NCBI GenBank assembly: GCA_001799615.1 | Contig: MGTU01000009.1 | Coordinates: forward strand, 576-64,575 | DNA: 64,000 bases | Direction: 5' to 3' | From: Elusimicrobia bacterium GWA2_61_42 | GTDB lineage: Bacteria; Elusimicrobiota; Elusimicrobia; Elusimicrobiales; UBA9959 | Shown: positions 1 to 16,351 of the stretch, piece after piece | Numbering within the stretch: the first letter of the stretch is position 1 | Layout of the letters: every line of letters begins with the position of its first letter | The notes under the pieces: model-generated | What the model saw: only the letters and a program-made list of their open reading frames with translations | What the model was told of the DNA's origin: nothing | The model's database searches: none | Program-made: the position numbers and the translations under genes

Positions 1-3000
1 CGCGGGCGGCGTCCAGCCGGCGGGGGCCTTGCCGGGCGCGGGGGCCAGTTCCTCGGCTGTCAGCACCACGCCCTTGCCCTTGGCCAGTTCTTCCTGGGTG
101 AAGAAGCCGGCGCAGCCTTTTTTCATGCTGATGAACGGCTCGCCGTCCACGGTGCTTTCATAGTTGAAGAAGAAGAGCCAGATGTCGCCGTTCTGCGCGA
201 AACGCTCTATATTGATGTCGTAGTGGATCACCTGGCCCGGCAGCGGCAGGGCCCGGTGGACTGTTACCTCGGCGTCGAGCAGGCGGTACATGGCCTTGCC
301 CCTGGTGCGGTCGTCAATGCCCAGGTAGCCGCAGAGGAACAGGTCGGCCTGGCCGGCCTCCACCGCTATGCAGGTGGGAATGCGGCCGCAGTCCAGGTAC
401 CAGGCGCCGGGCAGGATATCGTGCTCGGTGACCACGCTGCCGGAGGTCATGGAGCCGGGCTCGCCCTTCACGCTCAGGATCCGGTCCACCAGCATCAGCG
501 GTTCGTCGGGCAGGCGCACCCGGGTAGGGTAGGCATCGGCGGCAGCGAATTTTTCTCCGAGTACCTTGGCGATGGACCCGACGGCGAATTCCATGCACTG
601 CTCGCGGTTCATGAAAACTTTTTCCGGGGCGGAGCTGCCGGAAACGATCGCCGAGGCCGCGGGAGTGACGGGGGAGTGGGCGACCGGCATAGGGAGCACC
701 GCGCCGGGCTGACCGCCAAGGGCGCGCGCCAGGGTGCCCTGGAAGGCTATGTTCCTGGACTGGAGCTCGGTGAAGTTTTTGGAAAGCCGCAGGAAAATTT
801 CGTGGGCGTTGGCTTTGGCCGCGTTAGCCGCGGCGAAATTCTGCAGATAGGCCGGGCCCCCCTGCGCGGAAAGGGTTGCATGCTGGGGCAGCGCCTGCGG
901 AGCGAAGGAGACCGGTGCGATGGCGGCCTGCGCCGGCGCTGCGGCTGCTTGCGCGGGCGCGGGGGCGGGCCTGGCCGGGGCCGCGGGGGAGGAGCTCATG
1001 GCAGGAGTCTGCGGGGCGGCCTCGACAGTCGCTGGCCGCCAGATCAGCGCGTCGGGGGCCGGAACGGAAAGTCCGGCTTTAATTCTTGTTTTTTTCTGCG
1101 GGACGTCCTGGTGCGCGGCGGCGCGGGATTCCAGGCCGTAGAGGGGCGCCAGGTCTACCGGGGCCCGTTCGGCCAGCAGCCGCGCCAGCAGGCGCAGTAT
1201 GGTGCCAATCTCATCCTGGTTCTTCACGCAGGCGGGCCGAGCCGCGTGGGGCCGGCCGGCCAGGATCTTGTCTATCATCCGGGTGCAGGACGCCTGCGGT
1301 CCCAGCTCCACGAAAACCCTGGCGCCGTCTTCGTAGGCGCGTTTTACCAGCGACGGGAAGTCCAGGATGTGCACGGCCTGCGCCACGATCGAGTCGGCCG
1401 CGCTGTCGCGGGTCACGTCGTAGGGCTTTTTCCAGGCGCCGCTGTAGAATTTGATGCCGGGCGGAGGGTCGGTGGGGAAAAGGTGCAGGTCCCGGTACTG
1501 CTTCTCCACCAGCTTTGCCGCGGCGAAATGTACCGTGGACACGCCTTGCAGCGGCAGGAACACGCAGCCCATGCCCTGGACCAGTGAATCTACCGCCTTG
1601 CGGTAGCCGCCTACCACGCATTCCAGCGGGGCGTTGACGATGAGCAGCGCGGCGCGTTCGGCGCCTTTCAGGGCCAGGCGCACCGTTTCGGCCGGGCGGT
1701 CTATCACGCCCAGCACCCAGTCGGCCTTCTCGTCCTTGGGCAGATTCCAGAAGCGGCGGGCGGCGTCGCAGGGGCCGGCCAGGTCGCTGACGAACAGGCT
1801 GGACTCGTTGATGCGGCGCAGCATCTCGTCGCGCGCGGTCCACGTGCGGGTGGCGAAAAGCCCGGCGGTCTCGCCCAGGCTGTAGCCTATAACGATAGCC
1901 GGTTGTATCCCCAGCGAACGCACCAGGTCGCTGACGGCCGTGCCGTGGGCCACGGAGCCGAAGATCATGGAATTGTAGTCATCCACTATGCGCAGTTCCG
2001 TCTCCGCCTGCCAGCCCGGTTCCCAGGTCAGGCGCCAGGGGGCGAAGAGTTCCGGCACCATCTGGGCGCGCAGGTAGCCGTTCTCGGCGTCGAGCCGGCG
2101 GATGATCTCGGGCCACTGGGTCCAGAGGCCGCGGCCCATGCCGATATACTGGTTGCCGGAGCCGGGGAAAACGAAGGCGAGATTTTCTTTACGGGCCAAA
2201 CCGGCGGGGGAATAATAGACGCGGTCCTTGAAAACCGGTTTTTCCGGATCGCCGCGCAGCGCGGCCGCGGCTTCCGCGTGAAGGGCGAGCAATTCCGCCG
2301 CGTTCCGGGCCAGCAATACGCAGGCCCGTTTTTTTGCCGACCTTGCGCCGGCGCGGGCGAACCAGCTCCGGGCCAGCCGCTCGATGTTGACTTCCTGGTC
2401 CTGCTTTGAAAGCCAGGCGCGCAGGTCTTCCAGCCCTTCCAGCAGCCCGCGGGCGTCGTCGTCCTCTACCGCGAAAAGAGCTTCGGCCCGCGCGCCGAGC
2501 GGCTGGCGGCGCTCTATAGCAGGACGATCACCGGCCGCCTGCTCCAGGCCTTCTAAAACCACGTGGCCGCAGTTGCCGTCGAGGCCGAGGGCGCTGACGC
2601 CGGCGCGGCGCGGGCCTTCGGCCCGGTTGCGCAGCCAGTACTGGGGCTCCGGGGGAATGTGGAATCTTTTTTTAGCGCGAGCCAGCGTGGCCAGAGGAAA
2701 AATTTCGGCCAGCGGCGGGAGTATCTCCTGGTAAAGGGCCAGGGCGGTCTTTACCACGCCGGCGAGGCCGCAGGCGGGGCCCGTGTGGCCTATTACCGGT
2801 TTCACCGAGCCCAGCGCGCAGGGCAGCGGGGAGGCGGAGACGCCGTAAAAATCAGTGAGGGCTTCCGCTTCGGCCGCGTCCTCCGCGGGAATGCCGCTGC
2901 CGTGAGTTTCCAGGTAGCCGATAGTGGACGGGTCCACCTGCGCTTCTGCGTAGGCCTCGCGCAGCGCCGAGGCGTAGGCCTGCGGGGTGGGGGCGGGCTT

Positions 3001-5253
3001 GTCCACGCCGCCGCCGGAGGCGAAGCCCAGGCCCTTTATAACGGCGTAGACGCGGTCTCCGTCGCGCACGGCGTCGTCCAGGCGTTTGAGCACCAGGGCG
3101 GCCGCGCCTTCGCCCTGCACGGTGCCTGAGGCGGCGGTGTCGAAAGGTTTGGGCTGCGGCGCGAAAGGCCGCAGGGCGTCCGCGGCGTTCAGGGCGCGGG
3201 GATCTCCGTCCAGGGAGACCGCGCCGACCAGGGCGGTATCGAGTTCGCCGGCGCGCAGGGCGCGCACGGCCGTCTCGAGCGCCCGCAGGCCGGAGGTCTC
3301 GCCGCTGGAAATAGTGAAGCTGGGGCCTCCGACGTGGAATTCGCGGGCTATGCGGCTGGCCACTATGCCGCCCAGCGCTCCCATGGTGCGGTTGGCCGAG
3401 AGCGCCGGCCCGGCTTTTTCGCGCAGGGCCGACAGCAGGTCGGTCTCTTCTTTTTTTGAAAGTTTCCAGCCCTTCTCAGCCGCGTACCGGTGGGCGGTGT
3501 CGGCCAGGGCCCAGCGGAAATGGAAATTAGTGGTGTTCAGGTCCAGCCCCAGGCCTATAAAGACCCCGGCGTTCTCCAGGCCTTTGCCGCCGGCATCGGC
3601 TATGGCGCGGGCCGCGGTGTCGAGCATCAGCAGCTGCTGCGGCAGCATCTCCTCCAGTTCCTTCGGGGGGATGCGGTAAGCGTCGGCCGCCACGCCGACC
3701 TCGCGCAGGTAAAAACCTTTCTTGCCGGGGGGCAGGCCGCGCAGGCGTTCTCCCGGCAGATCGCCGGTCGGCGCGGCCGAGGTGCCGAGCGCGGCCTCCT
3801 GGAACTGCCGCAGGCCGCCCAGGGCGCCGAAGCGGGCTTCCATGCCGATTATGGCCACCGGCGCCGGCGGCGCGGGCGGGGCCTGCCGCAGGGCGGGAGT
3901 GTAGGAACCTGAGTATTCCTCCACCAGTACGTGGGCGTTGATGCCGCCGAAGCCGAAGGCGCTGACTGCGGCGCGGCGCGGGGTGCGCCCGTCGCGCTGG
4001 GCCCAGTCGGCGGCCTCGCTGTTCACGCGGAAAGGCGAATCGGCCAGTTTTATTTTGGGCCCGGGCTTGGAGAAATTGGCGGTAGGGGGCAGGGTCTTGT
4101 TCTGGAAGGCCAGCAGCACCTTCATCAGGCCGGCCGAGCCGGCGGCGGTGAGCAGGTGGCCGATATTGGATTTTACCGAGCCCAGGGCGCACTGGCCCTC
4201 GCTCCAGCCGCGCTCGCCCCAGAGGGTCTTGAGGCTTTCCACCTCCACCGGGTCGCCGGTGGGAGTGCCGGTGGCGTGGCACTCTATGTAGTCCACCTGG
4301 GACGGGGAAAGCCCGGACTGGCGGTAGGCGGAGCGCATGGCGTAGAGCTGCCCGGCGGTGTTGGGGGCCAGCAGGCTGCCGCCGATGTCGTTGGAGAGGC
4401 CTATGCCGGTGATCAGGCCGTAGATCTTGTCGCCGCTGCGCACGGCGTCGGCCAGGCGTTTGAGCACGAACATGCCGGCGCCTTCGCCCACTACCAGGCC
4501 GTCGGCGGCGGCGTCGAAGGGGGAGGGGCGGCCGGAAGGCGACAGGGCGCGCAGCTGGGAGAAACCCATCTGCGTGTAGAGGCTGGCCGGGCGGGAAACG
4601 CCGCCGGTCAGCATGGCGTCGGCGCGGCCGGAGCGGAGGGCGTCGACGGCCAGTTTTATGGCGTAAAGCGAAGAGGCGCAGGCCGCGTCCAGAGTAAAGC
4701 TGCCGCCGGAGAGGCCGAGGGCGCGGGCTATGGCGGCGCCGGGCAGGCCGGCCGGGTAGCGGTTGAGCGGATCGGTCTTGGATTTCAGGCTGGTGAGCTG
4801 TTTGCCCAGCACCGCCCTTTCGAAATCGGGGAGCAGGGTTTCCAGCGACAGCGCGGAGACGGCGTCCGTGGGCAGTACTATGTTGCCTATGATCACGCCC
4901 GTGCGGGCACGGTTTATTCTTTTTTCTCCGGCGTCCAGAACGGCCTGCCGGGCGGCGTGCAGGGCCAGGTGGAAAACGGGGTCCAGTTTTTCGATGAAGG
5001 TTTCCCGCAGGTCCAGCCCGCCCGTGTCCAGCCGGAAATTCTCGACGAAGCAGGCCTTGAGGGAATAGACCTTGTCCGGCGCGCCTTTCTGCGGGTCGAA
5101 AGCTTCGCCGCCGGGCAGGATCCAGCGGCCGGCCGGCGCGTCTTTGGCCGAGCAGCTGCCTCCGGCTATGTTGGACCAGAAAGCCGGGAGGTCGGCCGCG
5201 CCGGGAAAAATGCCGCCGGCGCCGACTATCGCTATGGGCTGAATCTCTTTCAT
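1..5253 (-). CDS. pfaC: PUFA/secondary-lipid synthase subunit, PfaC/Pfa3-like (KS - chain-length-factor - AT - FabA-type DH ...); 3' end lies outside the window
   Basis: Absent from the ORF track because the frame never closes inside the window. Hand translation of the minus strand from the ATG at 5253..5251 gives MKEIQPIAIVGAGGIFPGAADLPAFW. Motifs found: KS active site FTLDAACASSLYA (Cys codon about 4680..4678); a second KS-like domain with the Cys lost (GPSFTISSGETSGL, about 3300..3260, CLF type); AT motif VIGYSLGETA (about 1893..1864); FabA-like DH HDILPGAWYLDCGRIP...YRLLDAEVTVHRALPLPGQVIHYDI (about 440..215). The start shares one base with the pfaA stop (TGATG). Confidence 0.85.
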   Translation of the reverse strand, partial: MKEIQPIAIVGAGGIFPGAADLPAFWSNIAGGSCSAKDAPAGRWILPGGEAFDPQKGAPDKVYSLKACFVENFRLDTGGLDLRETFIEKLDPVFHLALHAARQAVLDAGEKRINRARTGVIIGNIVLPTDAVSALSLETLLPDFERAVLGKQLTSLKSKTDPLNRYPAGLPGAAIARALGLSGGSFTLDAACASSLYAIKLAVDALRSGRADAMLTGGVSRPASLYTQMGFSQLRALSPSGRPSPFDAAADGLVVGEGAGMFVLKRLADAVRSGDKIYGLITGIGLSNDIGGSLLAPNTAGQLYAMRSAYRQSGLSPSQVDYIECHATGTPTGDPVEVESLKTLWGERGWSEGQCALGSVKSNIGHLLTAAGSAGLMKVLLAFQNKTLPPTANFSKPGPKIKLADSPFRVNSEAADWAQRDGRTPRRAAVSAFGFGGINAHVLVEEYSGSYTPALRQAPPAPPAPVAIIGMEARFGALGGLRQFQEAALGTSAAPTGDLPGERLRGLPPGKKGFYLREVGVAADAYRIPPKELEEMLPQQLLMLDTAARAIADAGGKGLENAGVFIGLGLDLNTTNFHFRWALADTAHRYAAEKGWKLSKKEETDLLSALREKAGPALSANRTMGALGGIVASRIAREFHVGGPSFTISSGETSGLRALETAVRALRAGELDTALVGAVSLDGDPRALNAADALRPFAPQPKPFDTAASGTVQGEGAAALVLKRLDDAVRDGDRVYAVIKGLGFASGGGVDKPAPTPQAYASALREAYAEAQVDPSTIGYLETHGSGIPAEDAAEAEALTDFYGVSASPLPCALGSVKPVIGHTGPACGLAGVVKTALALYQEILPPLAEIFPLATLARAKKRFHIPPEPQYWLRNRAEGPRRAGVSALGLDGNCGHVVLEGLEQAAGDRPAIERRQPLGARAEALFAVEDDDARGLLEGLEDLRAWLSKQDQEVNIERLARSWFARAGARSAKKRACVLLARNAAELLALHAEAAAALRGDPEKPVFKDRVYYSPAGLARKENLAFVFPGSGNQYIGMGRGLWTQWPEIIRRLDAENGYLRAQMVPELFAPWRLTWEPGWQAETELRIVDDYNSMIFGSVAHGTAVSDLVRSLGIQPAIVIGYSLGETAGLFATRTWTARDEMLRRINESSLFVSDLAGPCDAARRFWNLPKDEKADWVLGVIDRPAETVRLALKGAERAALLIVNAPLECVVGGYRKAVDSLVQGMGCVFLPLQGVSTVHFAAAKLVEKQYRDLHLFPTDPPPGIKFYSGAWKKPYDVTRDSAADSIVAQAVHILDFPSLVKRAYEDGARVFVELGPQASCTRMIDKILAGRPHAARPACVKNQDEIGTILRLLARLLAERAPVDLAPLYGLESRAAAHQDVPQKKTRIKAGLSVPAPDALIWRPATVEAAPQTPAMSSSPAAPARPAPAPAQAAAAPAQAAIAPVSFAPQALPQHATLSAQGGPAYLQNFAAANAAKANAHEIFLRLSKNFTELQSRNIAFQGTLARALGGQPGAVLPMPVAHSPVTPAASAIVSGSSAPEKVFMNREQCMEFAVGSIAKVLGEKFAAADAYPTRVRLPDEPLMLVDRILSVKGEPGSMTSGSVVTEHDILPGAWYLDCGRIPTCIAVEAGQADLFLCGYLGIDDRTRGKAMYRLLDAEVTVHRALPLPGQVIHYDINIERFAQNGDIWLFFFNYESTVDGEPFISMKKGCAGFFTQEELAKGKGVVLTAEELAPAPGKAPAGWTPPA

Positions 5254-8200
5254 CAGGCGGCGGTCGCGCTCAGCTCCTTCTTCTGAAAAGCGGCGTTAAG
5301 GGCCTTGTCCACGGTGGAGTCGTAGCCTTCCAGCCTGGCCACCAGTGCGCCCTTGTCGTCGGTAAAATCTATGTCGGCCGTGCAGGCGTGCTCGGCGCTG
5401 CGGGTCACGCGCGCGGAGATCCGCACCCCGCCGCCGGGGAACTGCGAGTATTGGCGGTAGGCGGCGGCCGAGTTGGGCAGCGAGCAGGCGCCGGAGTTCT
5501 CGAAGGTCCAGAGGATCATACCCTGGAAGGCGGCGTCGAGGGCGGCGGGGTCAGCCAGCCAGCGGTCGCGCAGCGGGCTGCGCATCCAGGAGGCCGGCGG
5601 CAGCGAGGCCGCGGCGTCCAGCACTATGCCCTTTTCAGAGACGCCCGCCACCGAGCGGATGAAGCGCATGTCCTCGCCGTGGAAAAGGATCTCGCCGTAG
5701 GCCTTGTCCGCGGTGCGCGGGTAAGGCTTGAGGGGGAAGTCGGGCGCCGGAGCGGCGGCTGCGGGCAGCGCGGCGGCCAGCACTATTTCGGCGCCGGCGT
5801 GCAGTTCCCCGTTGGGGCCGCGCAGTTCGACCGGCACGGCGAAGAGGCCGTTAAGCTTCGAGGTTTTTCCAGCCAGAGCGGAGACCCGGTAGGTCCCGCC
5901 CTCCAGCAGTATGCCCTTGTAGATCTTGAGGCCGTTGAAGCCGTGGAAGAGCAGGCCCGGGTTGCCGTGCAGCGCGGCGTGGGCCAGCCATTCGGTTATC
6001 ACGGCCGTCGGCACCACCGCTTTGCCGTTGATGACGTGCGAGCGCAGGAAAGGGCTGTCGGCCACGGAGACGGAAAAGTCGAAAGCGCGCGCGAGCGCCC
6101 GGCCGGAGACCGGCGGGGTCGCGGCCGGGGCTTTGGGCCTGGCCACCACTACCACCTCGGCCGGGCCGCCCTGCAGAGAGAGTTCGTTGACCAGGAACCT
6201 GCCGCCTTCCTCGAGGCCTATCACACCCACGCCCTCTTTGGCAAAGAGGGCCTTGAGCCCGTCGTTAACCATGCCGCCGTCCCACGGGCCCCAGTTGAAA
6301 GAGGCCACGCGGCAGTCGGGCAGGCGGCGCGCCAGCAGGCGGGCCGTCTTGTTGAGCACTTCGTTGGCCATCGCGTAATCGCACTGGCCGGCGCGGCCGA
6401 AGCGCGCGGTGGAGGAGGAATAAAGCGCCAGCGCTTTAAGTTTCGTCAGGTCCAGCGCTGTTAATATGTTGCGCAGTCCGACCACCTTGGTGTCGAACAC
6501 GGAGCTGAACTGCTCGTCGGTCTTGTCCAGCAGCAGCTTGTCGGCCAGTACGCCGGCGCCGTGCACCAGGCCGCGCACGGGGCCCAGCTCTTTCTTGACT
6601 TTGGCCAGGGCTTCTCCCACGGCTTTGGCGTCGCGTATGTCCGCGGAGTAATAGGAGGCGCGCGAGCCGGCGGCCTCGAAGCGGTTGAGCTGGGCGCGGA
6701 TCTCGCGGGCGGCCAGTATGCTGCGGCACTGCTCGCCGGCCGCCTTCGGGGCCATGCCCGGGTTGCGCGACAGCAGGGCTTTCTTTATATCGTTCTCGGA
6801 GCCGCAGGCGGCCAGCCAGCCTTCTTCGGCTGCAGGCAGGGGGCTGCGGCCCAGCACGGCCAGGGCAGCGCCGCAGGCGGCGGCCAGGGCGGCCGCGGCC
6901 TCGGCGGTGACGCCGCGCGCCCCGCCGGTGATGAGCACTACGTCGCCTTTGGCCAGGGGGAAATCCTCGCCCTTGACCTGTTCCGAGCGGCTCAGCAGCA
7001 CTACTTTGCTGCCGGTATCGGAAAGGCCCAGCTCGGCCGGGCCCTTGCAGAAGAGCTCGTCGGCCACGGCTTGCGCCACGGAGACGGTGTGGGTCCAGTC
7101 GGCGGCGGCGTCCAGCGCGCGGCAGGAAACTTCAGGCCACTCGTGCCCGGCCGTCTTGGCCAGGCCTGCCAGCCCGCCGAAAACAGGGTCCTGCTCGGAC
7201 TTGAGCCCCGAGATGCCGAAGGCGCCGTCCAGGCGGGAGACCGTCATCAGGACGGCTCCGGAGGCTTTGCCGGCGGCCTTAAGCGCGGGGCCGGCGGCGC
7301 GGGTCAGGCTGAAAGCTTTTTTCAGGAAAGCTTCCGAGGTCCCGTTCCAGAAATCCTTCTTGCCGAGCTTTACCGCGGGGGCGATTATCACCAGGCCCGC
7401 CAGGCCGGTGCCTGGCACGGCCGTTTCATCGAGTGAAACCGTCTTTGCCGCGTGGCCGCGTTCCACGAGATTTTTAACTATTGCCGCCGACAGGGCAGAG
7501 CCGTCCTCGGTAACCCAGATCGGAAGTTTTTTGTCGAGCGGTACCGCCTGCCGGGGAGCGGAGAGGTCCAGTTCCGCGGTCTTGAGCACTTCGCGGACTA
7601 TTTCGCTCTCGAAAGTTTTTGCGGCCGCCGCGGCGGGGGCCGGGACGGGCGCGGGGGCCGCGCCGGCCGTGAGATGGGCCGCCACCTGGCGCAGGGTGCG
7701 GATGGCGCCGAGCTGCTCCGGGGTAATGCGCGGGGCGGACGGCAGCCTTTCCTGCAGTTCGGAAAGAATGGCCACGCGCTTGATGGAGTCGATGCCGAGG
7801 TCGGACTCCATGTCCATGTCCTGGTTGAGCGACTCGGCCGGGTAGCCGGTCTGGGCCGAGACTATCTCGAGGAGTACGCTGGAAATTTCTGAACCCGCCG
7901 CTGCCGGGGCCTGCTGCGCGGGGGCCGCCGGCATTCCGGCGCTGAGGTGGGCGGCCACCTGGCGCAGCGTGCGTATGGAACCGAGCTGTTCAGGCGTAAT
8001 GCGGGGGGCGGAAGGCAACTTCTCCTGCAGCTCGGAGAGTATCGCCACGCGCTTTATGGAATCGATGCCGAGGTCGGACTCCATGTCCATGTCCTGGTTG
8101 AGCGACTCGGCCGGGTAGCCGGTCTGGGCCGAGACTATTTCGAGCAATACTTTGGAAACTTCGGAACCGGCCGCCACGGGGGCCGGCTGCGCGGGCGCGG

Positions 8201-11200
8201 CCTGGACCGCGGGCATTCCGGCGCTGAGGTGGGCGGCCACCTGGCGCAGGGTGCGGATGGAGCCGAGCTGCTCGGGCGTAATGCGGGGCGCGGTGGGGAG
8301 TTTCTCCTGGAGCTCGGAGAGAATGGCCACGCGCTTGATGGAATCGATGCCGAGGTCGGACTCCATGTCCATATCCTGGTTGAGCGATTCGGCCGGGTAA
8401 CCGGTCTGGGACGAAACGATATCCAGCAGCACTTTCGCGACGTCGGGCCCGGCCGCGGCCGGGGCGGGCAGGGCGGGGGCCGGTGCCGGCTGGTACGCCG
8501 GGACGGCAGCGCGGGGGGCGGGGGCGGGCTGGTACGCGGGCCACGGCTGGGCCGGCGCGCCGCCGAAGAACTGCTGCTGCTGGTCCAGCAGGGTCTGGAA
8601 GGAGCGCTGGGCGGCTTCCTGTCCCTCGAGGAAACGGGTATGCAGGATAGCGGTCTGCTCCTGCATCTTCTGCAGGGCGGCCATGCTTTCCTGCGTAATG
8701 CGCAGCGCGTCGGAGGCGTAGGCCTGCAGGGCAGGCTGCATGGCCGGCGCTCCGGTGAGTGCCTGCGCGGCCGCCGGGGCGGCGACTACCCTGCGGAGCG
8801 CGGGCTTTTGACCGGCGGGGCGGGGGGAGCGGTAATTGGCGCCGGTAAGTTTAACGGCAAGCTTGGAAACCTTGTTCTCCAGCACGTCCTTCACGCCGGC
8901 TTCCCCGTTCTCCCAGGCGGCGAGGTCCAGTTTATAACCCAGCGCAGCCAGGCGGGCCAGCGCGCGCGCGGCGTCGGCTATGCCGGAGCGTTTGCCGGCG
9001 GAGGCGTCCAGGGCGAAAGCGGTATGCGGCTTGCCGGCCAGGATGGCCGAGGCCAGGCCGGTCAGGCGCGAGCCGGGGCCCACCTCAAGGAATACGCGCG
9101 TTCCTGCGGCGTACATCTTCTCTATCATCGCAGTGAACTCCACAGGCGAGGCCAGCTGCGACGCCAGGATCTCGCGCGCCTTGCCGGGGTTCTCCGGGTA
9201 GGCTTCGGCGGTCTTGTTGGCGTAAACGGCGGCAACCGGCTTGTCGAATTTGACTTTCTCCAGCGCGGCGGCGAACTCTTTCTGCGCGCCGGCCACCAGC
9301 GGGCTGTGGAAAGCGGCCGAGACCTGCAGCTGCGTGCTCTTGAGGCCGCGGCTGGCGAAGGCTGCGGCGGCCCGCTTTATTTCTTCGGTGCGCCCTGACA
9401 GTACGAACTGCGCCGGGGCGTTCTTGTTGGCGATAATGAGGTCGAGCTTTTCTTCCTTAACGACTTTTTCCACGTCGGCGAGGCCGGCCTGCACGGCCAG
9501 CATTCCCCCGCGGTCGCCGGAGCCGGCGGCCATCAGGGAGCCGCGCAGTTTGGACAGGGAGAACAGTGAGGCAGCGTCAAAGGCGCCGGCCGCGCAGAGC
9601 GCCGCCAGTTCGCCGTAGCTGTGCCCGGCGAAAGCGTCGGGCTTGAGGCCGAAGCCGGCCAGCACGCGCCAGGCGCCCAGGGCGGCCGCGCCCAGCGCAG
9701 GCTGCGCCACCGAGGTGTCGCGCAGGGCGTCGGCCTGGGCCTGCCTGCCCTCCGGGGTGAAGGCGGACCTGGGATAGATGAAGTCGGAGAGCGGCTTATC
9801 GCCGCCGAAGGCCTTGTCGGCCGCGGCCAGCGTATCCAGCGCGGCGGGGAAACGGCAGACTATATCGCGCTGCATGCCTGGGTACTGCGCGCCCTGGCCG
9901 GGGAACAGCACGGCCAGCTTTTCGGGCGCGCCGGAGGCGTAGAACACGCCGTCGGGAGTGGTCCAGGAGGCGGCCTGCTGCGAAGAGAGATTGGAGAGAG
10001 CGGAAGCTATGACTTTATTATAGTCGGAGTCCCGCTCCAGCACGAAGGTAAGGCGCGCGGCGCCGTCGGCCTTGTAGGCAGCGCGGGAGCGCATGGCTTT
10101 AACGCGCAGGTCGTTCCACTGCAGCCCTGCCCAGCCGGCCAGCTCGGTCTTCAGCGTTCCTGCGTCGGGCCCGGAGAGGGCCGCGATCTGCACTTCGCCG
10201 TCCCAGTCGGGCTGGGCCTTAACGGGGGAGTATTCCTCCAGCACGGCGTGGAAATTGGCGCCGCCGAACCCCAGGGCGCTCACGGCCGCCCGGCGGGGGT
10301 GGCTCTTCGGCAGCCAGGGGCGCAGTTCGGTGTTGAGGTAGAAGGGGGTAGTTCCGGCCGCCAGCTGTTTTACCGGCGCGGTTACTTTAATGGTGGGCGG
10401 GAGGGTTTTGTTGTAGAGCGAGAGGGCGGCCTTGATGAGGCCGGCCGAACCGGCGGCGGCCTTGGTGTGGCCGATCATGGATTTCACCGAGCCGAGGGCG
10501 CACCAGGTGCCTTCCTTCCTGCTGTCGCGATAAACTTCGGTGAGGGCGTCCACTTCTACGCCGTCGCCGACGGTGGTGCCGGTGCCGTGCGCTTCCGCCA
10601 TCTCCACCGTGTCGGGGGAAACGCCGGTGACGGAGTAGGCGTTCCTGAGCGCGCGGGCCTGACCTTCGGCGCTGGGGGCGTAGATGGCCTTGCCTTTGCC
10701 GTCGGAGGAGGAGCCCACGCCCTTGAGCACGGCGTAGATCCTGTCGCCGTCCTTAACGGCGTCGTCGAGGCGCTTCATCACCATCATGCCCAGGCCTTCG
10801 CCCAGGGCCGTGCCGTCGGCGGAAGCGTCGAAAGGCTTGGCGTTGCCGTCGGCGGACAGCGCCGGGGTCTTGCTGAAGCACATGTACATGAAAATATCGT
10901 TGAAACAGTCCACGCCGCCGGTGACCACCATGGTGGAGCGCCTGGTGGCCAGCTCCATGGAGGCCATGTGCACCGCGCCCAGCGAGGAGCCGCAGGCGGC
11001 GTCCACCACGCAGTTGGTGCCGCCCAGGTTGAAGCGGTTGGCCACGCGGCCGGAGACCACGTTGCCGAGCAGGCCGGGGAAGGAACTTTCCTGCCACGGG
11101 ACGTAGTCCTCCTGCATGCGTGAGATGATGGCTTCGGCGTCCGCGCCGGTTATGCCGAACTCGGAGAGGGCCTTGCGCCACTTGGGGTGGCCCAGGCGGG

Positions 11201-11624
11201 CGCCGAGGGGGATCACCAGCTCCAGGGCGCCGGTGACGCCGAGGATAACGCTGACGCGGCCGCGGTCGAAATCCCGGCCGGGGCCGTAGCCCGCGTCCTG
11301 CAGGGCCATCTTGGCCGTCAGCAGGCCCAGCAGCTGGGCGCTGTCGGTGGCTTCCAGCGCGTTGGGCGCCAGGCCGAACTCCGACGGGTCGAAGTCCACG
11401 GGCAGGATGAAACCGCCCTTGCGGGCGTAGGTGCGGTCCGGGCTTTTGGGATTCTTGTCGTAATAATCTTCGGGGAGCCAGTGGGAGGCCGGCACGTCGG
11501 TGATGGCGTCCACGCCGTTCTTGATGTTGGCCCAGAACCGGCGGGCGTTCTCCGCTTTGGGGAACAGGCAGCCTATGCCGACTATCGCCACCGGTGACTG
11601 GACTGAGTTTTCTTTTACGCTCAT
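5253..11624 (-). CDS. pfaA: PUFA/polyketide synthase multidomain subunit, PfaA/Pfa2-like: KS - malonyl-CoA:ACP AT - 3 tandem ACP - KR - PKS-type DH
   Basis: 2123-aa ORF. Motifs found: KS VVDAACGSSL and HGTGT; AT GHSYGE; three near-identical ACPs each with DLGIDSIKRV; KR ITGGARGVTAEAA; DH LRSHVINGKAVVPTAV (HxxxGxxxxP). Confidence 0.93.
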   Translation of the reverse strand: MSVKENSVQSPVAIVGIGCLFPKAENARRFWANIKNGVDAITDVPASHWLPEDYYDKNPKSPDRTYARKGGFILPVDFDPSEFGLAPNALEATDSAQLLGLLTAKMALQDAGYGPGRDFDRGRVSVILGVTGALELVIPLGARLGHPKWRKALSEFGITGADAEAIISRMQEDYVPWQESSFPGLLGNVVSGRVANRFNLGGTNCVVDAACGSSLGAVHMASMELATRRSTMVVTGGVDCFNDIFMYMCFSKTPALSADGNAKPFDASADGTALGEGLGMMVMKRLDDAVKDGDRIYAVLKGVGSSSDGKGKAIYAPSAEGQARALRNAYSVTGVSPDTVEMAEAHGTGTTVGDGVEVDALTEVYRDSRKEGTWCALGSVKSMIGHTKAAAGSAGLIKAALSLYNKTLPPTIKVTAPVKQLAAGTTPFYLNTELRPWLPKSHPRRAAVSALGFGGANFHAVLEEYSPVKAQPDWDGEVQIAALSGPDAGTLKTELAGWAGLQWNDLRVKAMRSRAAYKADGAARLTFVLERDSDYNKVIASALSNLSSQQAASWTTPDGVFYASGAPEKLAVLFPGQGAQYPGMQRDIVCRFPAALDTLAAADKAFGGDKPLSDFIYPRSAFTPEGRQAQADALRDTSVAQPALGAAALGAWRVLAGFGLKPDAFAGHSYGELAALCAAGAFDAASLFSLSKLRGSLMAAGSGDRGGMLAVQAGLADVEKVVKEEKLDLIIANKNAPAQFVLSGRTEEIKRAAAAFASRGLKSTQLQVSAAFHSPLVAGAQKEFAAALEKVKFDKPVAAVYANKTAEAYPENPGKAREILASQLASPVEFTAMIEKMYAAGTRVFLEVGPGSRLTGLASAILAGKPHTAFALDASAGKRSGIADAARALARLAALGYKLDLAAWENGEAGVKDVLENKVSKLAVKLTGANYRSPRPAGQKPALRRVVAAPAAAQALTGAPAMQPALQAYASDALRITQESMAALQKMQEQTAILHTRFLEGQEAAQRSFQTLLDQQQQFFGGAPAQPWPAYQPAPAPRAAVPAYQPAPAPALPAPAAAGPDVAKVLLDIVSSQTGYPAESLNQDMDMESDLGIDSIKRVAILSELQEKLPTAPRITPEQLGSIRTLRQVAAHLSAGMPAVQAAPAQPAPVAAGSEVSKVLLEIVSAQTGYPAESLNQDMDMESDLGIDSIKRVAILSELQEKLPSAPRITPEQLGSIRTLRQVAAHLSAGMPAAPAQQAPAAAGSEISSVLLEIVSAQTGYPAESLNQDMDMESDLGIDSIKRVAILSELQERLPSAPRITPEQLGAIRTLRQVAAHLTAGAAPAPVPAPAAAAAKTFESEIVREVLKTAELDLSAPRQAVPLDKKLPIWVTEDGSALSAAIVKNLVERGHAAKTVSLDETAVPGTGLAGLVIIAPAVKLGKKDFWNGTSEAFLKKAFSLTRAAGPALKAAGKASGAVLMTVSRLDGAFGISGLKSEQDPVFGGLAGLAKTAGHEWPEVSCRALDAAADWTHTVSVAQAVADELFCKGPAELGLSDTGSKVVLLSRSEQVKGEDFPLAKGDVVLITGGARGVTAEAAAALAAACGAALAVLGRSPLPAAEEGWLAACGSENDIKKALLSRNPGMAPKAAGEQCRSILAAREIRAQLNRFEAAGSRASYYSADIRDAKAVGEALAKVKKELGPVRGLVHGAGVLADKLLLDKTDEQFSSVFDTKVVGLRNILTALDLTKLKALALYSSSTARFGRAGQCDYAMANEVLNKTARLLARRLPDCRVASFNWGPWDGGMVNDGLKALFAKEGVGVIGLEEGGRFLVNELSLQGGPAEVVVVARPKAPAATPPVSGRALARAFDFSVSVADSPFLRSHVINGKAVVPTAVITEWLAHAALHGNPGLLFHGFNGLKIYKGILLEGGTYRVSALAGKTSKLNGLFAVPVELRGPNGELHAGAEIVLAAALPAAAAPAPDFPLKPYPRTADKAYGEILFHGEDMRFIRSVAGVSEKGIVLDAAASLPPASWMRSPLRDRWLADPAALDAAFQGMILWTFENSGACSLPNSAAAYRQYSQFPGGGVRISARVTRSAEHACTADIDFTDDKGALVARLEGYDSTVDKALNAAFQKKELSATAA
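7665..8455 (-). repeat. Three tandem ACP-encoding repeats (period about 273-282 nt) inside pfaA, near-identical at nucleotide level over the cores
   Basis: The stretch ...gatgccgaggtcggactccatgtccatgtcctggttgagcgactcggccgggtagccggtctgggccgagactat... recurs at about 7790, 8065 and 8345. In protein it reads GYPAESLNQDMDMESDLGIDSIKRVAILSELQEKLP, three times. Confidence 0.9.
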
Positions 11625-11672
11625 AGTATCCTCGTTTCCCGGACCCTGTCCGGCGGCCGTTCGGCCTTGTTT

Positions 11673-13250
11673 CTAGTTGCGAAAGAACGCAGACAGCTGC
11701 TCCCTGGTGCGGGGGGCCTGGCGGGCCAGCCGGCTGTCGGCGGCCACGCCCTGGCAGCGCAGGGCGTGCAGGCGCGTAAGCGCGGCCGCCCCGGCGAGTA
11801 AATTATAGGCGACGGTAACGGCGTCGCGGGCTTCCGGTTTTTCAAGGAAGGAGCCCCTGGCCCATTCGTTGAAGGCGCCCATGGCGGGGCCGCACCAGAT
11901 CTGGTAGTCGAGCTTGCGGCTCTCGTCCCCGGCCAGCGGCCAGCGGGAGGACTGGCTGAGGTACCAGCGGAACACCAGGGCCAGCTTATGCTTCGGCTCC
12001 CGTTCGGCGCGCTCGGCCTGCGCGGGGTCTTTGCGCAGGAAGTAGTCCCGCGTGCCCTGCCAGACCTCGCCGAAGGAGGCGCGGAAATAATCCCGCTCGA
12101 TGACGGCCCTGGTCTCGGCGGGGATCTCCTCGAAGCTCCCGCAGGTGCGGTAAAGATCGTAAAGCTTGTTGGCGCGCATGGCGAACATGGTGCCGCGCTT
12201 GAGGATCTGCACCCGCACGCCCATCTCGAACATGTCGGCCGCGGCGGCCATGGCCACGTCGGCCTGCTCCGCCCCGGCGAGGAGTTTCCGCACCAGGTCC
12301 GTGGTGCCCGATTCCACGCAGGCCTGGTTGACCGAGCCGGTCACCACGTAGGCCGCGCCCATCATGAAGGCGGCGGCGGCCGCTTCGGGGGTGGCTATGC
12401 CGCCGCCGGCGCCCACGCGCGGGGCAACGGCGTAATTAAATTTCTCCTGCAGCCGGTCGCGCAGGGCGAGGATGGTGGGCAGCAGGTTGACCAGCGGCCG
12501 GTTGTCCGTATGCCCGCCGGAGTCGGCTTCGGCCGTCACGTCCTCCGCCACGGGGATCCTGGAGGCCAGCTCGGCCTGTTCGGGCGTGAGCTCGCCGCGG
12601 GAGACCAGCTCCTTCAGGAATTTTTCCTCCGGGGGCGAGAAGAAGCGCGTCGCCACTTCCGTGCGCGAGATCTTGCCTATCACGCGGTTAGGGGTCTCTA
12701 TCCCGCCGTCGGCGTTGCGGCGTATGCCCGCGGTGCGGTAGCGGATGAGCGGCAGGGTGAGGCCGATGAAAGCCGAAGCCTCCACCAGGCGCACGCCGCG
12801 TTTTAAGTACAGGTCCACCAGGGCCGCTTCCAGCGCGGGGTCTGAGGGGCTGTGTATCAGGTTGAAACCGAAATTGGGCACCGCGGCTGACTGCAGGCGG
12901 TCTATGGCCTTTTCAACTTCAGCGATGGGCTGGCCGGCGGCGCCGTAGAAGCCCAGCATGCCGGCCCGGCCGAACGCCTCGGCCAGTTCAGTGGAGCTTA
13001 TGCCGTTGGCCATGGAGCCGCCGACGTAGGCGTAACCCAGCCCGTGGGCCCGCAGGAAAGCGGGATCGCCCAGGTTTTCCGGGGCGCAGGCGGGCATTAC
13101 GGGGGTGCCGGGCTTGAGCCCGGGGGTTAAGGCCAGGCTTTCGGAGCCGGCAGCGGAGAAAGGCGCCGTCAGGTCCTGTATGGCGGCCAGGGTCTCCGGC
13201 GAATAAGGCAGAAAAGGCTGCGTTTTGGTCCCTGTCGTTGAAGCGGTCAA
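11673..13250 (-). CDS. pfaD: PfaD-family enoyl reductase (FMN-dependent, 2-nitropropane dioxygenase-like) of the PUFA/polyketide synthase
   Basis: 525 aa. It contains GGSMANGISSTELAEAFGRAGMLGFYGAAG and ADSGGHTD, typical of PfaD/Pfa1. It sits directly upstream of pfaA on the same strand. Confidence 0.9.
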   Translation of the reverse strand: MTASTTGTKTQPFLPYSPETLAAIQDLTAPFSAAGSESLALTPGLKPGTPVMPACAPENLGDPAFLRAHGLGYAYVGGSMANGISSTELAEAFGRAGMLGFYGAAGQPIAEVEKAIDRLQSAAVPNFGFNLIHSPSDPALEAALVDLYLKRGVRLVEASAFIGLTLPLIRYRTAGIRRNADGGIETPNRVIGKISRTEVATRFFSPPEEKFLKELVSRGELTPEQAELASRIPVAEDVTAEADSGGHTDNRPLVNLLPTILALRDRLQEKFNYAVAPRVGAGGGIATPEAAAAAFMMGAAYVVTGSVNQACVESGTTDLVRKLLAGAEQADVAMAAAADMFEMGVRVQILKRGTMFAMRANKLYDLYRTCGSFEEIPAETRAVIERDYFRASFGEVWQGTRDYFLRKDPAQAERAEREPKHKLALVFRWYLSQSSRWPLAGDESRKLDYQIWCGPAMGAFNEWARGSFLEKPEARDAVTVAYNLLAGAAALTRLHALRCQGVAADSRLARQAPRTREQLSAFFRN

Positions 13251-13333
13251 GCTGTTCTCCGTGCGCTGCGAATTTCGGGATTAGATCGGGATTTTTTTAA
13301 GGTGTCCTATATTATATATTTTTATAGGCGCCT

Positions 13334-14896
13334 ATGGTGACAGGTTGGCGGGGAAATATGCCAAAGTCCGGAAAAGGGACTCCCTCTGCCGTAAACATAT
13401 CCCGTAAGCGCGGTTTTTCCTACAATATAGGGGTGAAAAAAATACTGGTGCGCCGGTTCCGGTCAGCCGCGGCGCTGCTTTTGGCTTTCTTTGTCGCTTT
13501 TGCCGCGCTGGCCCTTCTGGCGGAAGGCCTGTATCGCTTAAGCCTGTTCGGTTCGGCCCGCTTCGCCGAAGGACAGGGCGACTTTGAACTGTACGCCATG
13601 GGCGAGTCCAGCATGGAGGGGTCCCCTTTCTACAGATCTCCGCCGGCCATCGTTTCCCTGCTGTTCTCGCACACGCTTGCCGGCCGGAATTTGCGCGTGA
13701 TAAACCTGGCTTACGGCGGGAATTCCGTGTACCCGCAGGCTATAAAAACCATCAGGGCCCTGAAGTACAGGAACCGCGCCGCCCCCGCCGCTCTGCTTAT
13801 CTACTCCGGCCACAATGAGAACATTCTCGGGTATGCCCGCGCCGCCCTGCCGCAGCGGGCGTATGAGCTTTTCAAGCGGCGCGTGCTGATACACTCGCTT
13901 CTTTTCAGCGAGGCGGCGCTGCGCCTGGAGCGGCGCTTTCTTTTTTACGGCGTCAGGGACCTGGCCCACTACGAGCATTACCTGCGCGCGGCCATCGAAG
14001 CCGCCCTGGACGCCGGCGCGGTGCCGATCGTTTCCACGCTCGCGAGCAATATCTCCGGCGTAGAGCCCGGGGAAGGCAGGCTGACCCCCGGGATAGAGCG
14101 GGCGCTGGGGCTGGAATTGGCGGGGAGATACGGAGAAGCGGCGCGGCAGTATTCGCGCCTGGCGGAAGACCCGGCTTCCGACGCCGGGGCCTCTTCGCTC
14201 CTGCCTTACCTGGAGTACCGGCTGGGCAGGTGCCTGCAGTCCATGGGAAAGCCGGCCGCGGCTAAAGAACATCTGCTTAAGGCGCTGGAGACCGACCCTT
14301 TGCCTTTTCGCGCAAAACCTTCCCAGAACGAAGTGATCCGCGGCCTGGCCGAAGAATACGGCATCCCTTTGCTGGACGCGGAAAAGCTGTTCGCCGGGCG
14401 TTCCGCTGACGGCCTTCCCGGCAGCGACCTTTTTGTGGACCATGTGCATCCTGACGCCGGGGGCTATATGCTTCTGTCCGGCGCCTTTGCCGGCCTGCTG
14501 GGGCGGGAATTCGGCGGGAAGGTCCGGCGCGATCTTCCCGGCCCTTCCGCCATGTCCGCCCTCGGCAGCGGCCGGCTTAGCGACAAGTCAACGCCGTATC
14601 TGCTGGCCGGGACGTACGTGCTCTGGTTCAGCTGGAGTTCCGTTCCCATCCCGGACCGCCTGGCGCTGGCCGAGAAAAATTTCAGGAGGGCCCTGAAGCT
14701 GCCCGGCGCCAATAATCTTGCGGCCGTCGGTTTGCGGGTCGTGGTCCTCTCCCGCAAAAACCGGAACATGATCCCCGAAGAGGTTTATGACTGGTTCAAG
14801 GGGAAGCGTTTTAATTTTGAGTATCTGCAGCCGCTGTCGGCGGAGGAACTGGCCGCGGCCGATAAATTCCTGCGCGGCTGGGAGAGCGGCGGATAA
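13334..14896 (+). CDS. Membrane-anchored SGNH/GDSL-like hydrolase with an inserted TPR-like segment (function unknown)
   Basis: Candidate SGNH blocks: AMGESS (block I), YGGNS (II), YSGHNE (III), DHVHP (V). There is an N-terminal TM helix (AALLLAFFVAFAALALLA). The start is uncertain; alternatives are ATG 13358 and GTG about 13433. Confidence 0.5.
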   Translation: MVTGWRGNMPKSGKGTPSAVNISRKRGFSYNIGVKKILVRRFRSAAALLLAFFVAFAALALLAEGLYRLSLFGSARFAEGQGDFELYAMGESSMEGSPFYRSPPAIVSLLFSHTLAGRNLRVINLAYGGNSVYPQAIKTIRALKYRNRAAPAALLIYSGHNENILGYARAALPQRAYELFKRRVLIHSLLFSEAALRLERRFLFYGVRDLAHYEHYLRAAIEAALDAGAVPIVSTLASNISGVEPGEGRLTPGIERALGLELAGRYGEAARQYSRLAEDPASDAGASSLLPYLEYRLGRCLQSMGKPAAAKEHLLKALETDPLPFRAKPSQNEVIRGLAEEYGIPLLDAEKLFAGRSADGLPGSDLFVDHVHPDAGGYMLLSGAFAGLLGREFGGKVRRDLPGPSAMSALGSGRLSDKSTPYLLAGTYVLWFSWSSVPIPDRLALAEKNFRRALKLPGANNLAAVGLRVVVLSRKNRNMIPEEVYDWFKGKRFNFEYLQPLSAEELAAADKFLRGWESGG

Positions 14897-14986: not shown

Positions 14987-16351
14987 GTGTTTTATTGTAA
15001 AATTTCAGACATGACGCGGCCCAACGCTTTTACCAAGGTTGCCGGCCCGGCGGCCATTGTCGGCGCCGTCGGCTGGACGCTTTGGCTATGGCCGGCGCAT
15101 TTCCTCTGGGTCTACCCCGCCAGCGGGGCGCTGTTCCTCTGGTTCTCCTGGTCCGGCGAGCGCGAAATAAAATACATCTTCCTTTTCCTGGTCACCGTGG
15201 CCGGGTTCCTGCTGCCTAATCTCTCGCCGGAGGGGGATTCGCTGTACCTTATGGCCGGGGCCATCGCCGAAACCCTGGGCCTGTGGCTGCTTTTCTACGC
15301 CTTGTCCCATTTTGAAACCTCGCGCGTAGCCGCCCGCGAGCGCCTGTACGCGCAGGAGGCGGCGGCGCTGGAAAAAGTGAAGAACCTGGAAGACGAGCTG
15401 GCCCGCTACCGCCTGCACCTCGACAGCACCCTGGCCCGCATAAGGGACAAGGGCGCCCTGGCCGCCGCCCTCCACGACATGGGCTCCGCCTCGGCCCCCG
15501 ACGAGGTGCGCGACCGGCTTGAAACCCTGCTGCGCGAATATTTCCCGGGCGCCTCGGTGGAACTGCGCACCGGCGCCCCGCGCGATTTCGCCGATAACTG
15601 GGTGGCGGAGCGCAAGATCCCGCTGCTGGTGCGCAACTCGGACGCCGACAGCCGCTTTAACCGGAGTCTTTTCGGGCCGCAGGAGCGCTCTTTCATGGCG
15701 CTGCCGCTTTACCTGTTCGGCCGGCTGGTCGGGTTCGTGCGCGCGTCGGCGGCGGCTCCGGACCGCTTCAAGTCGGAGGACCTCCGCGGGGCTGAGCTCG
15801 CCTGCACGCTGGCCGGGGTCAGCATGGAGAACATCTACCTTTTCGACAAGGTCAACGAACTGGCCATAAAGGACGGGCTTACCGGCCTTTACACGCACCG
15901 GGCTTTCCAGGACCGGGTGCAGGAAGAGGTGCTGCGCTCGGCGCGCACCAAGGTCCCGTTCTCCATAATCATGGCCGACATCGACCATTTTAAATCCTAC
16001 AACGACAATTTCGGCCACCAGGCCGGCGACACGGTCCTGAAGGCCGTGGCGGAAGTTTTCGCCGGAGGCGTGCGCGACATCGACTTCGTGTCGCGCTACG
16101 GCGGCGAGGAGTTCGCCCTGGTAATAACCGGCTCCGGCAAAGAGCAGGCGTCCGCCGTGGCCGAGGGGCTGCGCCGCTCGCTCGAGGCCAGGGCTTTTAA
16201 TTTCGGCGGCCGGCCGTCCCGCGTAACCGCCAGCTTCGGCGTGGCCGAATTTCCCTCCGAGGGCGCCGCCGCCAGCCAGCTGGTGCGGGCCTCGGACGAG
16301 CGCCTGTATAAAGCCAAAGAAGGCGGCCGCAACAGGGTGGTGTTCGAATGA
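14987..16351 (+). CDS. Diguanylate cyclase, membrane N-terminus + GAF-like + GGDEF (GGEEF) with an RxxD I-site
   Basis: Contains LTGLYTHRAF, DIDHFKSYND and RDIDFVSRYGGEEF. The ORF-track start is a GTG; the ATG at 15011 (MTRPNAF) is an equally plausible start. Confidence 0.85.
   Translation: MFYCKISDMTRPNAFTKVAGPAAIVGAVGWTLWLWPAHFLWVYPASGALFLWFSWSGEREIKYIFLFLVTVAGFLLPNLSPEGDSLYLMAGAIAETLGLWLLFYALSHFETSRVAARERLYAQEAAALEKVKNLEDELARYRLHLDSTLARIRDKGALAAALHDMGSASAPDEVRDRLETLLREYFPGASVELRTGAPRDFADNWVAERKIPLLVRNSDADSRFNRSLFGPQERSFMALPLYLFGRLVGFVRASAAAPDRFKSEDLRGAELACTLAGVSMENIYLFDKVNELAIKDGLTGLYTHRAFQDRVQEEVLRSARTKVPFSIIMADIDHFKSYNDNFGHQAGDTVLKAVAEVFAGGVRDIDFVSRYGGEEFALVITGSGKEQASAVAEGLRRSLEARAFNFGGRPSRVTASFGVAEFPSEGAAASQLVRASDERLYKAKEGGRNRVVFE

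Follow-up and report, generated by a model that had tools for sequence, protein, structure and literature searches.

A Pfa-type synthase locus adjoining oleABCD in Elusimicrobia bacterium GWA2_61_42 and its predicted hydrocarbon product

The closest described systems and the Elusimicrobia locus

The systems that come closest to the locus reported here, a polyunsaturated fatty acid (PUFA)-type, or Pfa, synthase cluster in 64,000 nucleotides of contig MGTU01000009.1 of Elusimicrobia bacterium GWA2_61_42 (positions 576 to 64,575; hereafter the window), are known from Geobacter, from Shewanella and Photobacterium, and from myxobacteria. Type I in Shulse and Allen's scheme of secondary-lipid synthases (PMC3098273), with a pfaBC fusion, occurs in Deltaproteobacteria and a single planctomycete; linkage to ole genes is frequent, and the type has been proposed as a source of olefin precursors. 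In Geobacter bemidjiensis the genes pfaD, A, B, C, oleA, B, C, D, and pfaE stand in tandem (Yoshida et al., PMC4882568), and this bacterium makes hentriacontanonaene, C31:9 (PMC3098273, PMC4882568). The products of other pfa/ole clusters are largely unknown (PMC4882568). For Shewanella it has been shown that the Pfa synthase is required for olefin formation and that OleA links both pathways (Allemann et al., PMC6463001); OleA still makes ketone in a host without acyl-CoA synthetase, and these authors infer that it draws 16:4 directly from the acyl carrier proteins (ACPs) of Pfa. In most marine PUFA producers the thioesterase gene pfaT is found linked to pfa or ole; its role is only accessory (PMC6463001). 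Myxobacterial Pfa3 carries a C-terminal AGPAT domain, described as unique, that transfers the chain to lysophosphatidic acid, and in these bacteria a distant location of pfaE is normal (PMC8436480). About the lipids of the phylum Elusimicrobia almost nothing is known; its sole published Pfa-like cluster, and its only entry in the survey of Shulse and Allen, comes from Elusimicrobium minutum and is of the unrelated Type R (PMC3098273). Full-text searches found no literature linking Elusimicrobia to pfa-ole clusters or polyunsaturated hydrocarbons.

The minus strand of window positions 1-13250 holds three co-directional, closely spaced open reading frames (ORFs), pfaD, pfaA, and pfaBC, with which a co-directional cluster of seven genes begins, pfaD-pfaA-pfaBC-oleA-oleB-oleC-oleD. 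The genes beyond the window were read on the 233-kb ENA scaffold ANAN16-1 scaffold_81 from Rifle groundwater, which shows 11 mismatches over 13,250 bp (99.9% identical). The genes and domains within the window are listed below, with ketosynthase abbreviated as KS, acyltransferase as AT, ketoreductase as KR, dehydratase as DH, enoyl reductase as ER, chain-length factor as CLF, polyketide synthase as PKS, and amino acids as aa.

11673-13250, minus strand: pfaD, trans-acting ER, first gene of the cluster; 525 aa, TTG start
5253-11624, minus strand: pfaA, KS-AT-ACP x3-KR-DH (PKS type); 2123 aa, ATG start
10383-11597, minus strand: PfaA KS, aa 10-414; PF00109 and PF02801, active-site motif VVDAACGSS
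9060-9908, minus strand: PfaA malonyl-CoA:ACP acyltransferase, aa 573-855; PF00698 with 117.8 bits, TIGR00128 (fabD) with 195 bits, motif GHSYG
7665-8447, minus strand: three tandem ACPs of PfaA; PF00550 in 3 stretches
6279-6938, minus strand: PfaA KR, aa 1563-1782; PF08659 with 112 bits
5313-6083, minus strand: C-terminal PKS-type DH of PfaA, aa 1848-2104; PF14765 (PS-DH) with 37 bits, and PF21089
1-5253, minus strand: pfaBC fusion, KS-CLF-AT-DH and onward, codons 1-1751 of 2322; continues past window base 1
3904-5238, minus strand: PfaBC KS, aa 6-450, catalytic Cys192; PF00109, PF02801, and PF16197, aligning to structure 6riw
2500-3657, minus strand: PfaBC CLF, aa 533-918; 36% identity to the KS in an internal BLASTP comparison (E 2e-50)
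1261-2175, minus strand: PfaB-type AT, aa 1027-1331, motif GYSLG; PF00698 (Acyl_transf_1) with 35.7 bits, cut-off 32.7
136-513, minus strand: first FabA-type dehydratase hot-dog stretch, aa 1581-1706; PF07977 with 25.5 bits on the window fragment

The packing of these genes is as tight as originally predicted, with the pfaD stop at 11673, the pfaA start at 11624, and a junction of the form TGATG in which base 5253 is common to the pfaA stop codon (TGA, 5255-5253) and the pfaBC ATG. The TTG start of pfaD has GGAG 9 nt upstream, and the public gene call on the scaffold likewise gives 525 aa; a 48-bp spacer separates pfaD from pfaA, whose ATG is preceded by GAGGA. Four public contigs encode a protein identical to the PfaA of the window. 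ORF order and hidden Markov model (HMM) matches agree with the view that the ER gene comes first and that an AT lies inside the KS-CLF-DH protein.

In profile searches PfaD and PfaA score well above the curated cut-offs, PfaD with 628 bits against TIGR02814 (cut-off 449) and PfaA with 1521 bits against TIGR02813 (cut-off 1010), and the best solved structures for PfaD are those of Shewanella PfaD, 6lkc (E 1e-172) and 4yx6 (E 9e-167). The prediction of a Pfa-type secondary-lipid synthase is thereby upheld, and the three window genes are a genuine PUFA-type synthase. The count of only three ACPs also stands: next to the three phosphopantetheine-binding stretches, PfaA has exactly three LGIDSIKR motifs, with the phosphopantetheine serines at Ser1095, Ser1189, and Ser1280, in units that are mutually 79-90% identical.

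The pfaBC frame is open over 1751 codons down to window base 1, so that the third gene is indeed cut by the window edge. On the near-identical scaffold the complete gene (L001 16372-23340) is a single intact ORF of 2322 aa with the order KS-CLF-AT-DH-DH, neither split nor pseudogenised; the PfaBC proteins of five further Elusimicrobia species show 77-84% full-length identity, and all their ORFs are intact. The second KS-like domain is confirmed, on alignment, as a true CLF, with Glu652 at the position of the catalytic Cys192 of the KS and both His motifs retained; the KS-CLF part matches the solved Moritella PfaC KS-CLF didomain 6riw with E 2e-128, and 6riw has the same Glu. The complete protein gives 257.7 bits with FabA (PF07977) in 4 stretches, i.e., two dehydratase units, of which the stretches other than the first lie past the window edge, and 215-222 bits with the fabA models. 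CLF and FabA-type DH domains, on which the original prediction depended, are therefore both present. The leftward extension that it proposed delivered the second DH; the Pfam scan found no AGPAT domain after the FabA domains of the complete 2322-aa PfaBC, and no phosphopantetheinyl transferase (PPTase) was found up to 6.5 kb past oleD.

This missing domain bears on the affinity with the myxobacterial Pfa1-Pfa2-Pfa3 systems (Aetherobacter, Minicystis, and Sorangium; Type L) that had been suggested. The likeness lies in the order ER, pfaA homologue, KS-CLF-AT-DH and in a PPTase that is not linked, being encoded at a separate locus in the myxobacteria (PMC8436480). However, the order is not specific to myxobacteria, because the Geobacter-type cluster has it too: ER-first and a pfaBC fusion are equally the Geobacter layout, and so the affinity comes down to gene order. 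A myxobacterial-type synthase that makes long-chain PUFAs such as eicosapentaenoic (EPA), docosahexaenoic (DHA), or arachidonic (ARA) acid and loads them directly into membrane phospholipids would fit the published description in gene order and unlinked PPTase (PMC8436480). We nevertheless consider it very improbable, as the complete third protein is without AGPAT, oleABCD directly follows pfaBC, and the nearest loci outside the Elusimicrobia are those of Desulfuromonadales and Planctomycetota among the best 80 loci of an OleA-anchored scan, a comparison that contained no myxobacterial reference sequence. Also unlike the myxobacterial clusters, whose products are phospholipid PUFAs, the Elusimicrobia cluster has ole genes attached.

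The four genes directly downstream of pfaBC, on the same strand of the scaffold, are assigned by their matches and order as oleA, oleB, oleC, and oleD. The start of oleA lies 188 bp past the pfaBC stop and 2.1 kb outside the window edge; oleA and oleB overlap by 1 base, oleB and oleC are 4 bp apart, and oleC and oleD overlap by 4 bases. OleA is a 339-aa thiolase (NF006720, 456 bits, cut-off 285) with Xanthomonas OleA as best solved structures (3fk5 and 3row, E 1e-51). In an alignment of 14 sequences its Cys123, Glu97, His266, and Asn296 are invariant, and the aligned motifs include EP(S/A)TA; we equate Glu97, which lies in this stretch, with the OleA-specific Glu117 of Xanthomonas. OleB is a 298-aa alpha/beta hydrolase (PF00561, 102 bits), OleC an adenylating enzyme of 534 aa (630 bits with PRK09274, cut-off 478), and OleD a 333-aa reductase; the best specific matches of OleC and OleD are Ole-type models, with scores under the equivalog cut-offs, and their assignment is supported by synteny and by 42-56% identity to OleC and OleD of Shewanella and Geobacter. 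An 855-bp gap separates oleD from a gene whose product resembles a signal peptide at its N-terminus and matches no family; next to it, on the opposite strand, lies mfd.

The presence of OleB is of importance for another alternative, namely that the Ole enzymes halt at the beta-lactone or the ketone and so yield a specialised metabolite instead of a membrane olefin. Homologues of OleA, OleC, and OleD are described as making beta-lactone natural products without OleB (PMC7064751), and OleA alone gives a 31:8 ketone (PMC6463001). In the Elusimicrobia cluster, however, an OleB-type hydrolase is encoded between oleA and oleC, with a 1-base overlap with oleA, and it is 58-68% identical to the OleB that occupies the same position at the Geobacter and Shewanella loci, which makes such a halt, in our view, very improbable.

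Taken together, the locus resembles the Geobacter type in having the ER gene first, a pfaA encoding KS-AT-ACPn-KR-DH, a KS-CLF-AT-DH2 unit, and oleABCD directly downstream on the same strand, and also in its hosts, which are subsurface or anaerobic bacteria. Shewanella and Photobacterium have both enzyme systems too, encoded by pfaABCDE and oleABCD, and the chemistry proposed for them, from 16:4 to C31:9, is no different; the Elusimicrobia OleA is 54-56% identical to the Shewanella-type OleA. The locus is unlike these genes in that they have the marine order pfaA-B-C-D with a separate pfaB, and in that ole is unlinked in the 9 gammaproteobacterial loci. The Elusimicrobia are thus a new host phylum for a known and widespread type of pfa-ole cluster of which the enzymology is already known.

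The predicted product and the activation of the synthase

As oleABCD lies just past the window edge, in the same way as in Geobacter, a long polyunsaturated hydrocarbon is predicted for this cluster. By analogy with these systems we consider a polyunsaturated olefin, joined head to head from what the Pfa synthase supplies, to be the likely product, and not a phospholipid PUFA; that this olefin is exactly C31:9 has, on the same analogy, about as much in favor of it as against it. The original statement that the product could not be inferred from the sequence therefore proved too cautious in view of oleABCD, while the hydrocarbon precursor that it listed among the options is now the likely one.

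In the proposed pathway, a PPTase encoded elsewhere in the genome would first activate the three ACPs of PfaA. The Pfa synthase, composed of PfaA (KS-AT-ACP3-KR-DH), PfaBC (KS-CLF-AT-DH2), and PfaD as separate enoyl reductase, would then iteratively build a methylene-interrupted polyunsaturated acyl chain on these ACPs. OleA, a non-decarboxylating Claisen thiolase, would join two chains head to head, probably straight off the ACPs, after which OleD would reduce the beta-keto acid, OleC would close the beta-lactone, and OleB would decarboxylate the lactone, giving a cis-olefin that is polyunsaturated and very long. On the model of Shewanella and Geobacter, this could be hentriacontanonaene (C31:9) formed from two 16:4 chains. 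The sequences themselves show which genes are present, how their domains are ordered, the catalytic motifs, and a synteny that is conserved. Expression as an operon, the exact product, and the hand-off from ACP to OleA are what we infer from these two genera; the role of the PfaB-type AT is likewise a presumed one.

The original prediction held that no PPTase is encoded in the 64 kb, and this agrees with our results: no PPTase (PF01648) was detected in the window among the precomputed Pfam hits of all called genes or in a Pfam scan of the unannotated ORFs, and tblastn with the Geomonas PfaE gave no match in the window or in any Elusimicrobia locus. This is different from the Geobacter type, where Desulfuromonadales loci have pfaE after oleD; the ORF that follows oleD in Geomonas limicola encodes a PPTase (62 bits with PF01648), and tblastn with this protein placed PfaE homologues after oleD in 14 other Desulfuromonadales loci. 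With its seven genes the Elusimicrobia version is, therefore, a minimal unit, and it would need an unlinked PPTase. A pfaT or other hot-dog thioesterase was not seen among the precomputed Pfam hits for genes called in and just beyond the window, although no search was aimed at pfaT itself.

Several points weigh against an olefin as the product. Since no PPTase is linked, unlike in Geobacter, ACP activation has to be assumed. The AT of PfaBC matches the pfaB family model TIGR02816 weakly, with 86 bits and thus under the cut-off of 144. The haloalkane-dehalogenase-type matches of OleB are all below the curated cut-offs, OleC scores 580 and 530 bits with the olefin beta-lactone synthetase models (cut-offs 900 and 850), and OleD 397 and 351 bits with the 2-alkyl-3-oxoalkanoate reductase models (cut-off 580); the NCBI equivalog cut-offs for the OleC and OleD models are tuned to Xanthomonas and Shewanella. 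Chain length and the number of double bonds are not readable from the sequence, and, as a Pfa synthase can also release free PUFA, a dual output is possible.

Such a dual output, in which the synthase mainly supplies free or phospholipid PUFA and OleA diverts part of an intermediate to hydrocarbon, would be comparable to the situation in EPA-producing Shewanella: marine Shewanella produce EPA and C31:9 from one synthase, and OleA competes for the ACPs (PMC6463001). On the other hand, Shewanella oneidensis MR-1 is listed as EPA-negative and hydrocarbon-positive (PMC6463001), and PMC4882568 reports only C31:9 for G. bemidjiensis. Furthermore, the tight co-directional unit of pfa and ole genes across six phyla argues for a dedicated pathway. 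We therefore regard two outputs as unlikely, and continue to favor a polyunsaturated olefin.

Distribution and history of the pfa-ole layout

One genome per species was scanned with an OleA alignment, the best 80 loci were kept, and the seven proteins were mapped onto them by tblastn. In 58 of these 80 loci the C-terminus of pfaBC is directly upstream of oleA: 26 in Desulfuromonadales/Geobacter, 10 in Planctomycetota (including Kuenenia), 10 in Desulfobacterales and relatives, 9 in Elusimicrobia, and one each in the Verrucomicrobia (Limisphaerales), the Acidobacteria, and a doubtful Lysobacterales contig. The Shewanella and Psychromonas loci have homologous oleABCD without adjacent pfa genes in all nine cases. 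Identities to the Desulfuromonadales loci are 47-57% for PfaBC, 57-62% for OleA, 50-68% for OleB, and 44-48% for the C-terminal part of PfaA. The OleA of this locus is 100% identical to an NCBI protein assigned to Elusimicrobia bacterium GWA2_61_42, and the best 120 named homologues of OleA and of PfaD come nearly all from metagenome-assembled genomes (MAGs) of Elusimicrobia.

In the three relatives that were viewed from the pfaD side (L087, L088, and L089) the ER-first order pfaD-pfaA-pfaBC is retained. The number of ACPs in these relatives varies from 2 to 4, so three ACPs are not unusual. In L088, where the identity of PfaD is 63%, pfaA has two ACP motifs only and is separated from pfaD by an additional Cys-rich ORF of 257 aa (9626-10399) without a precomputed Pfam hit.

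In the neighbor-joining tree of OleA, 12 Elusimicrobia species and the query form one clade, which stands apart from the groups of Gammaproteobacteria, planctomycetes, Desulfuromonadales, and Desulfobacterales and, in particular, is not nested within the Desulfuromonadales, in which respect it is unlike the Geobacter type. The G+C content of the window between 1 and 12 kb is raised, at 0.67-0.69 versus 0.62. A recent horizontal transfer was considered as an explanation and rejected: the G+C content at third codon positions (GC3) of the pfa genes, 0.84-0.85, is within the range of seven other window genes (0.76-0.87), and the excess is consistent with amino-acid composition. The single OleA clade, together with a GC3 no higher than that of the other window genes, indicates that the pfa-ole cluster is old in the Elusimicrobia lineage and was not recently imported.

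Known first from Geobacter, this layout thus occurs in no fewer than six phyla, for the most part in anoxic or subsurface habitats, and this spread is of relevance to the antioxidant or membrane role proposed for these hydrocarbons and to their use as biomarkers. For the locus itself, the results allow the specific prediction that the synthase serves groundwater Elusimicrobia in making a polyunsaturated olefin of very great length; the gain is one of distribution and annotation and not of mechanism. A further reading, which we put forward tentatively and hold to be possible rather than probable, is that a whole clade of uncultured groundwater Elusimicrobia (this genome and 12 other species-level genomes) has long carried pfa-ole without pfaE and pfaT and makes a hydrocarbon that differs from C31:9 in length or double bonds, or PUFA and hydrocarbon together. 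If true, this would give the phylum its first diagnostic lipid, and it would be a natural case of OleA acting straight off the Pfa ACPs without an accessory thioesterase.

Two loci in the OleA tree stand apart from their assigned taxa. L027, the short contig (3.2 kb) that was binned as Lysobacterales, has its OleA within the Desulfuromonadales clade, which suggests a binning error, and the OleA of L080, an Elusimicrobiota MAG, falls outside the main Elusimicrobia clade and beside the Desulfuromonadales, which suggests either transfer or mis-binning. A contiguous pfaA-pfaBC-oleABCD unit occurs in the anammox bacterium Candidatus Kuenenia stuttgartiensis (L054) and in L053 (225-14657). Ladderane lipid biosynthesis genes in Kuenenia are the subject of an older comparative-genomics paper (PMC2649909).

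Cluster boundary, spacer elements, and neighboring genes

The upstream limit of the cluster is marked by the following feature.

13251-13333, no strand: A+T-rich divergent spacer between pfaD and a GDSL-TPR gene, presumed promoter region; 83 bp

The genes upstream of pfaD all differ in the relatives L087, L088, and L089, and pfaD is therefore the left boundary of the cluster. A promoter scan found no sigma-70 consensus in the region upstream of pfaD. The divergent GDSL/TPR gene (13334-14896) was considered as a releasing hydrolase and discarded, as its GDSL matches are below cut-off and the neighbor of pfaD is a different one in the three relatives; it is regarded as unrelated to the cluster. 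The spacer contains a perfect 12-bp palindrome, ATAGGCGCCTAT (13324-13335), that shares bases with the ATG of the GDSL gene. The window has a single occurrence, against 0.1 expected by chance, and one or more matches turned up in 9 of 100 shuffles; the palindrome could be an operator or due to chance.

The spacer between pfaBC and oleA (L004 9814-10000, corresponding to L001 23341-23527), approximately 1.9 kb beyond window base 1, holds a structured element of ca. 135 nt with a predicted fold of -88.8 kcal/mol (z -5.5). Three further Elusimicrobia genomes have the element conserved in the corresponding spacer, with compensatory changes in 18 of the 46 predicted pairs and with the conserved cores GCTTGCRTAAGCGCG and CACGGTGTG; a search of Rfam with the element gave no match, and its 15-mer core is absent from the window. 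A dedicated regulatory RNA was rejected in view of a second copy, located 11 kb away in an unrelated spacer (L004 20735-20972, minus strand), after alr, and provided with another outer stem. The element is therefore a dispersed repeat, resembling repetitive extragenic palindromes (REP) or miniature inverted-repeat transposable elements (MITE), or else a multi-copy small RNA.

Elsewhere in the window, two adjoining diguanylate cyclase genes (GAF-GGDEF and GGDEF; 14987-17595, plus strand) overlap by 4 bases and lie beside an S49 peptidase gene. A secretin gene comes after a giant ORF with Ricin-B lectin domains (31809-41752, plus strand; 2671 aa, or 2626 aa from the different start of the public gene call), and the pair looks like a giant protein, secreted or on the surface, and an export channel dedicated to it.

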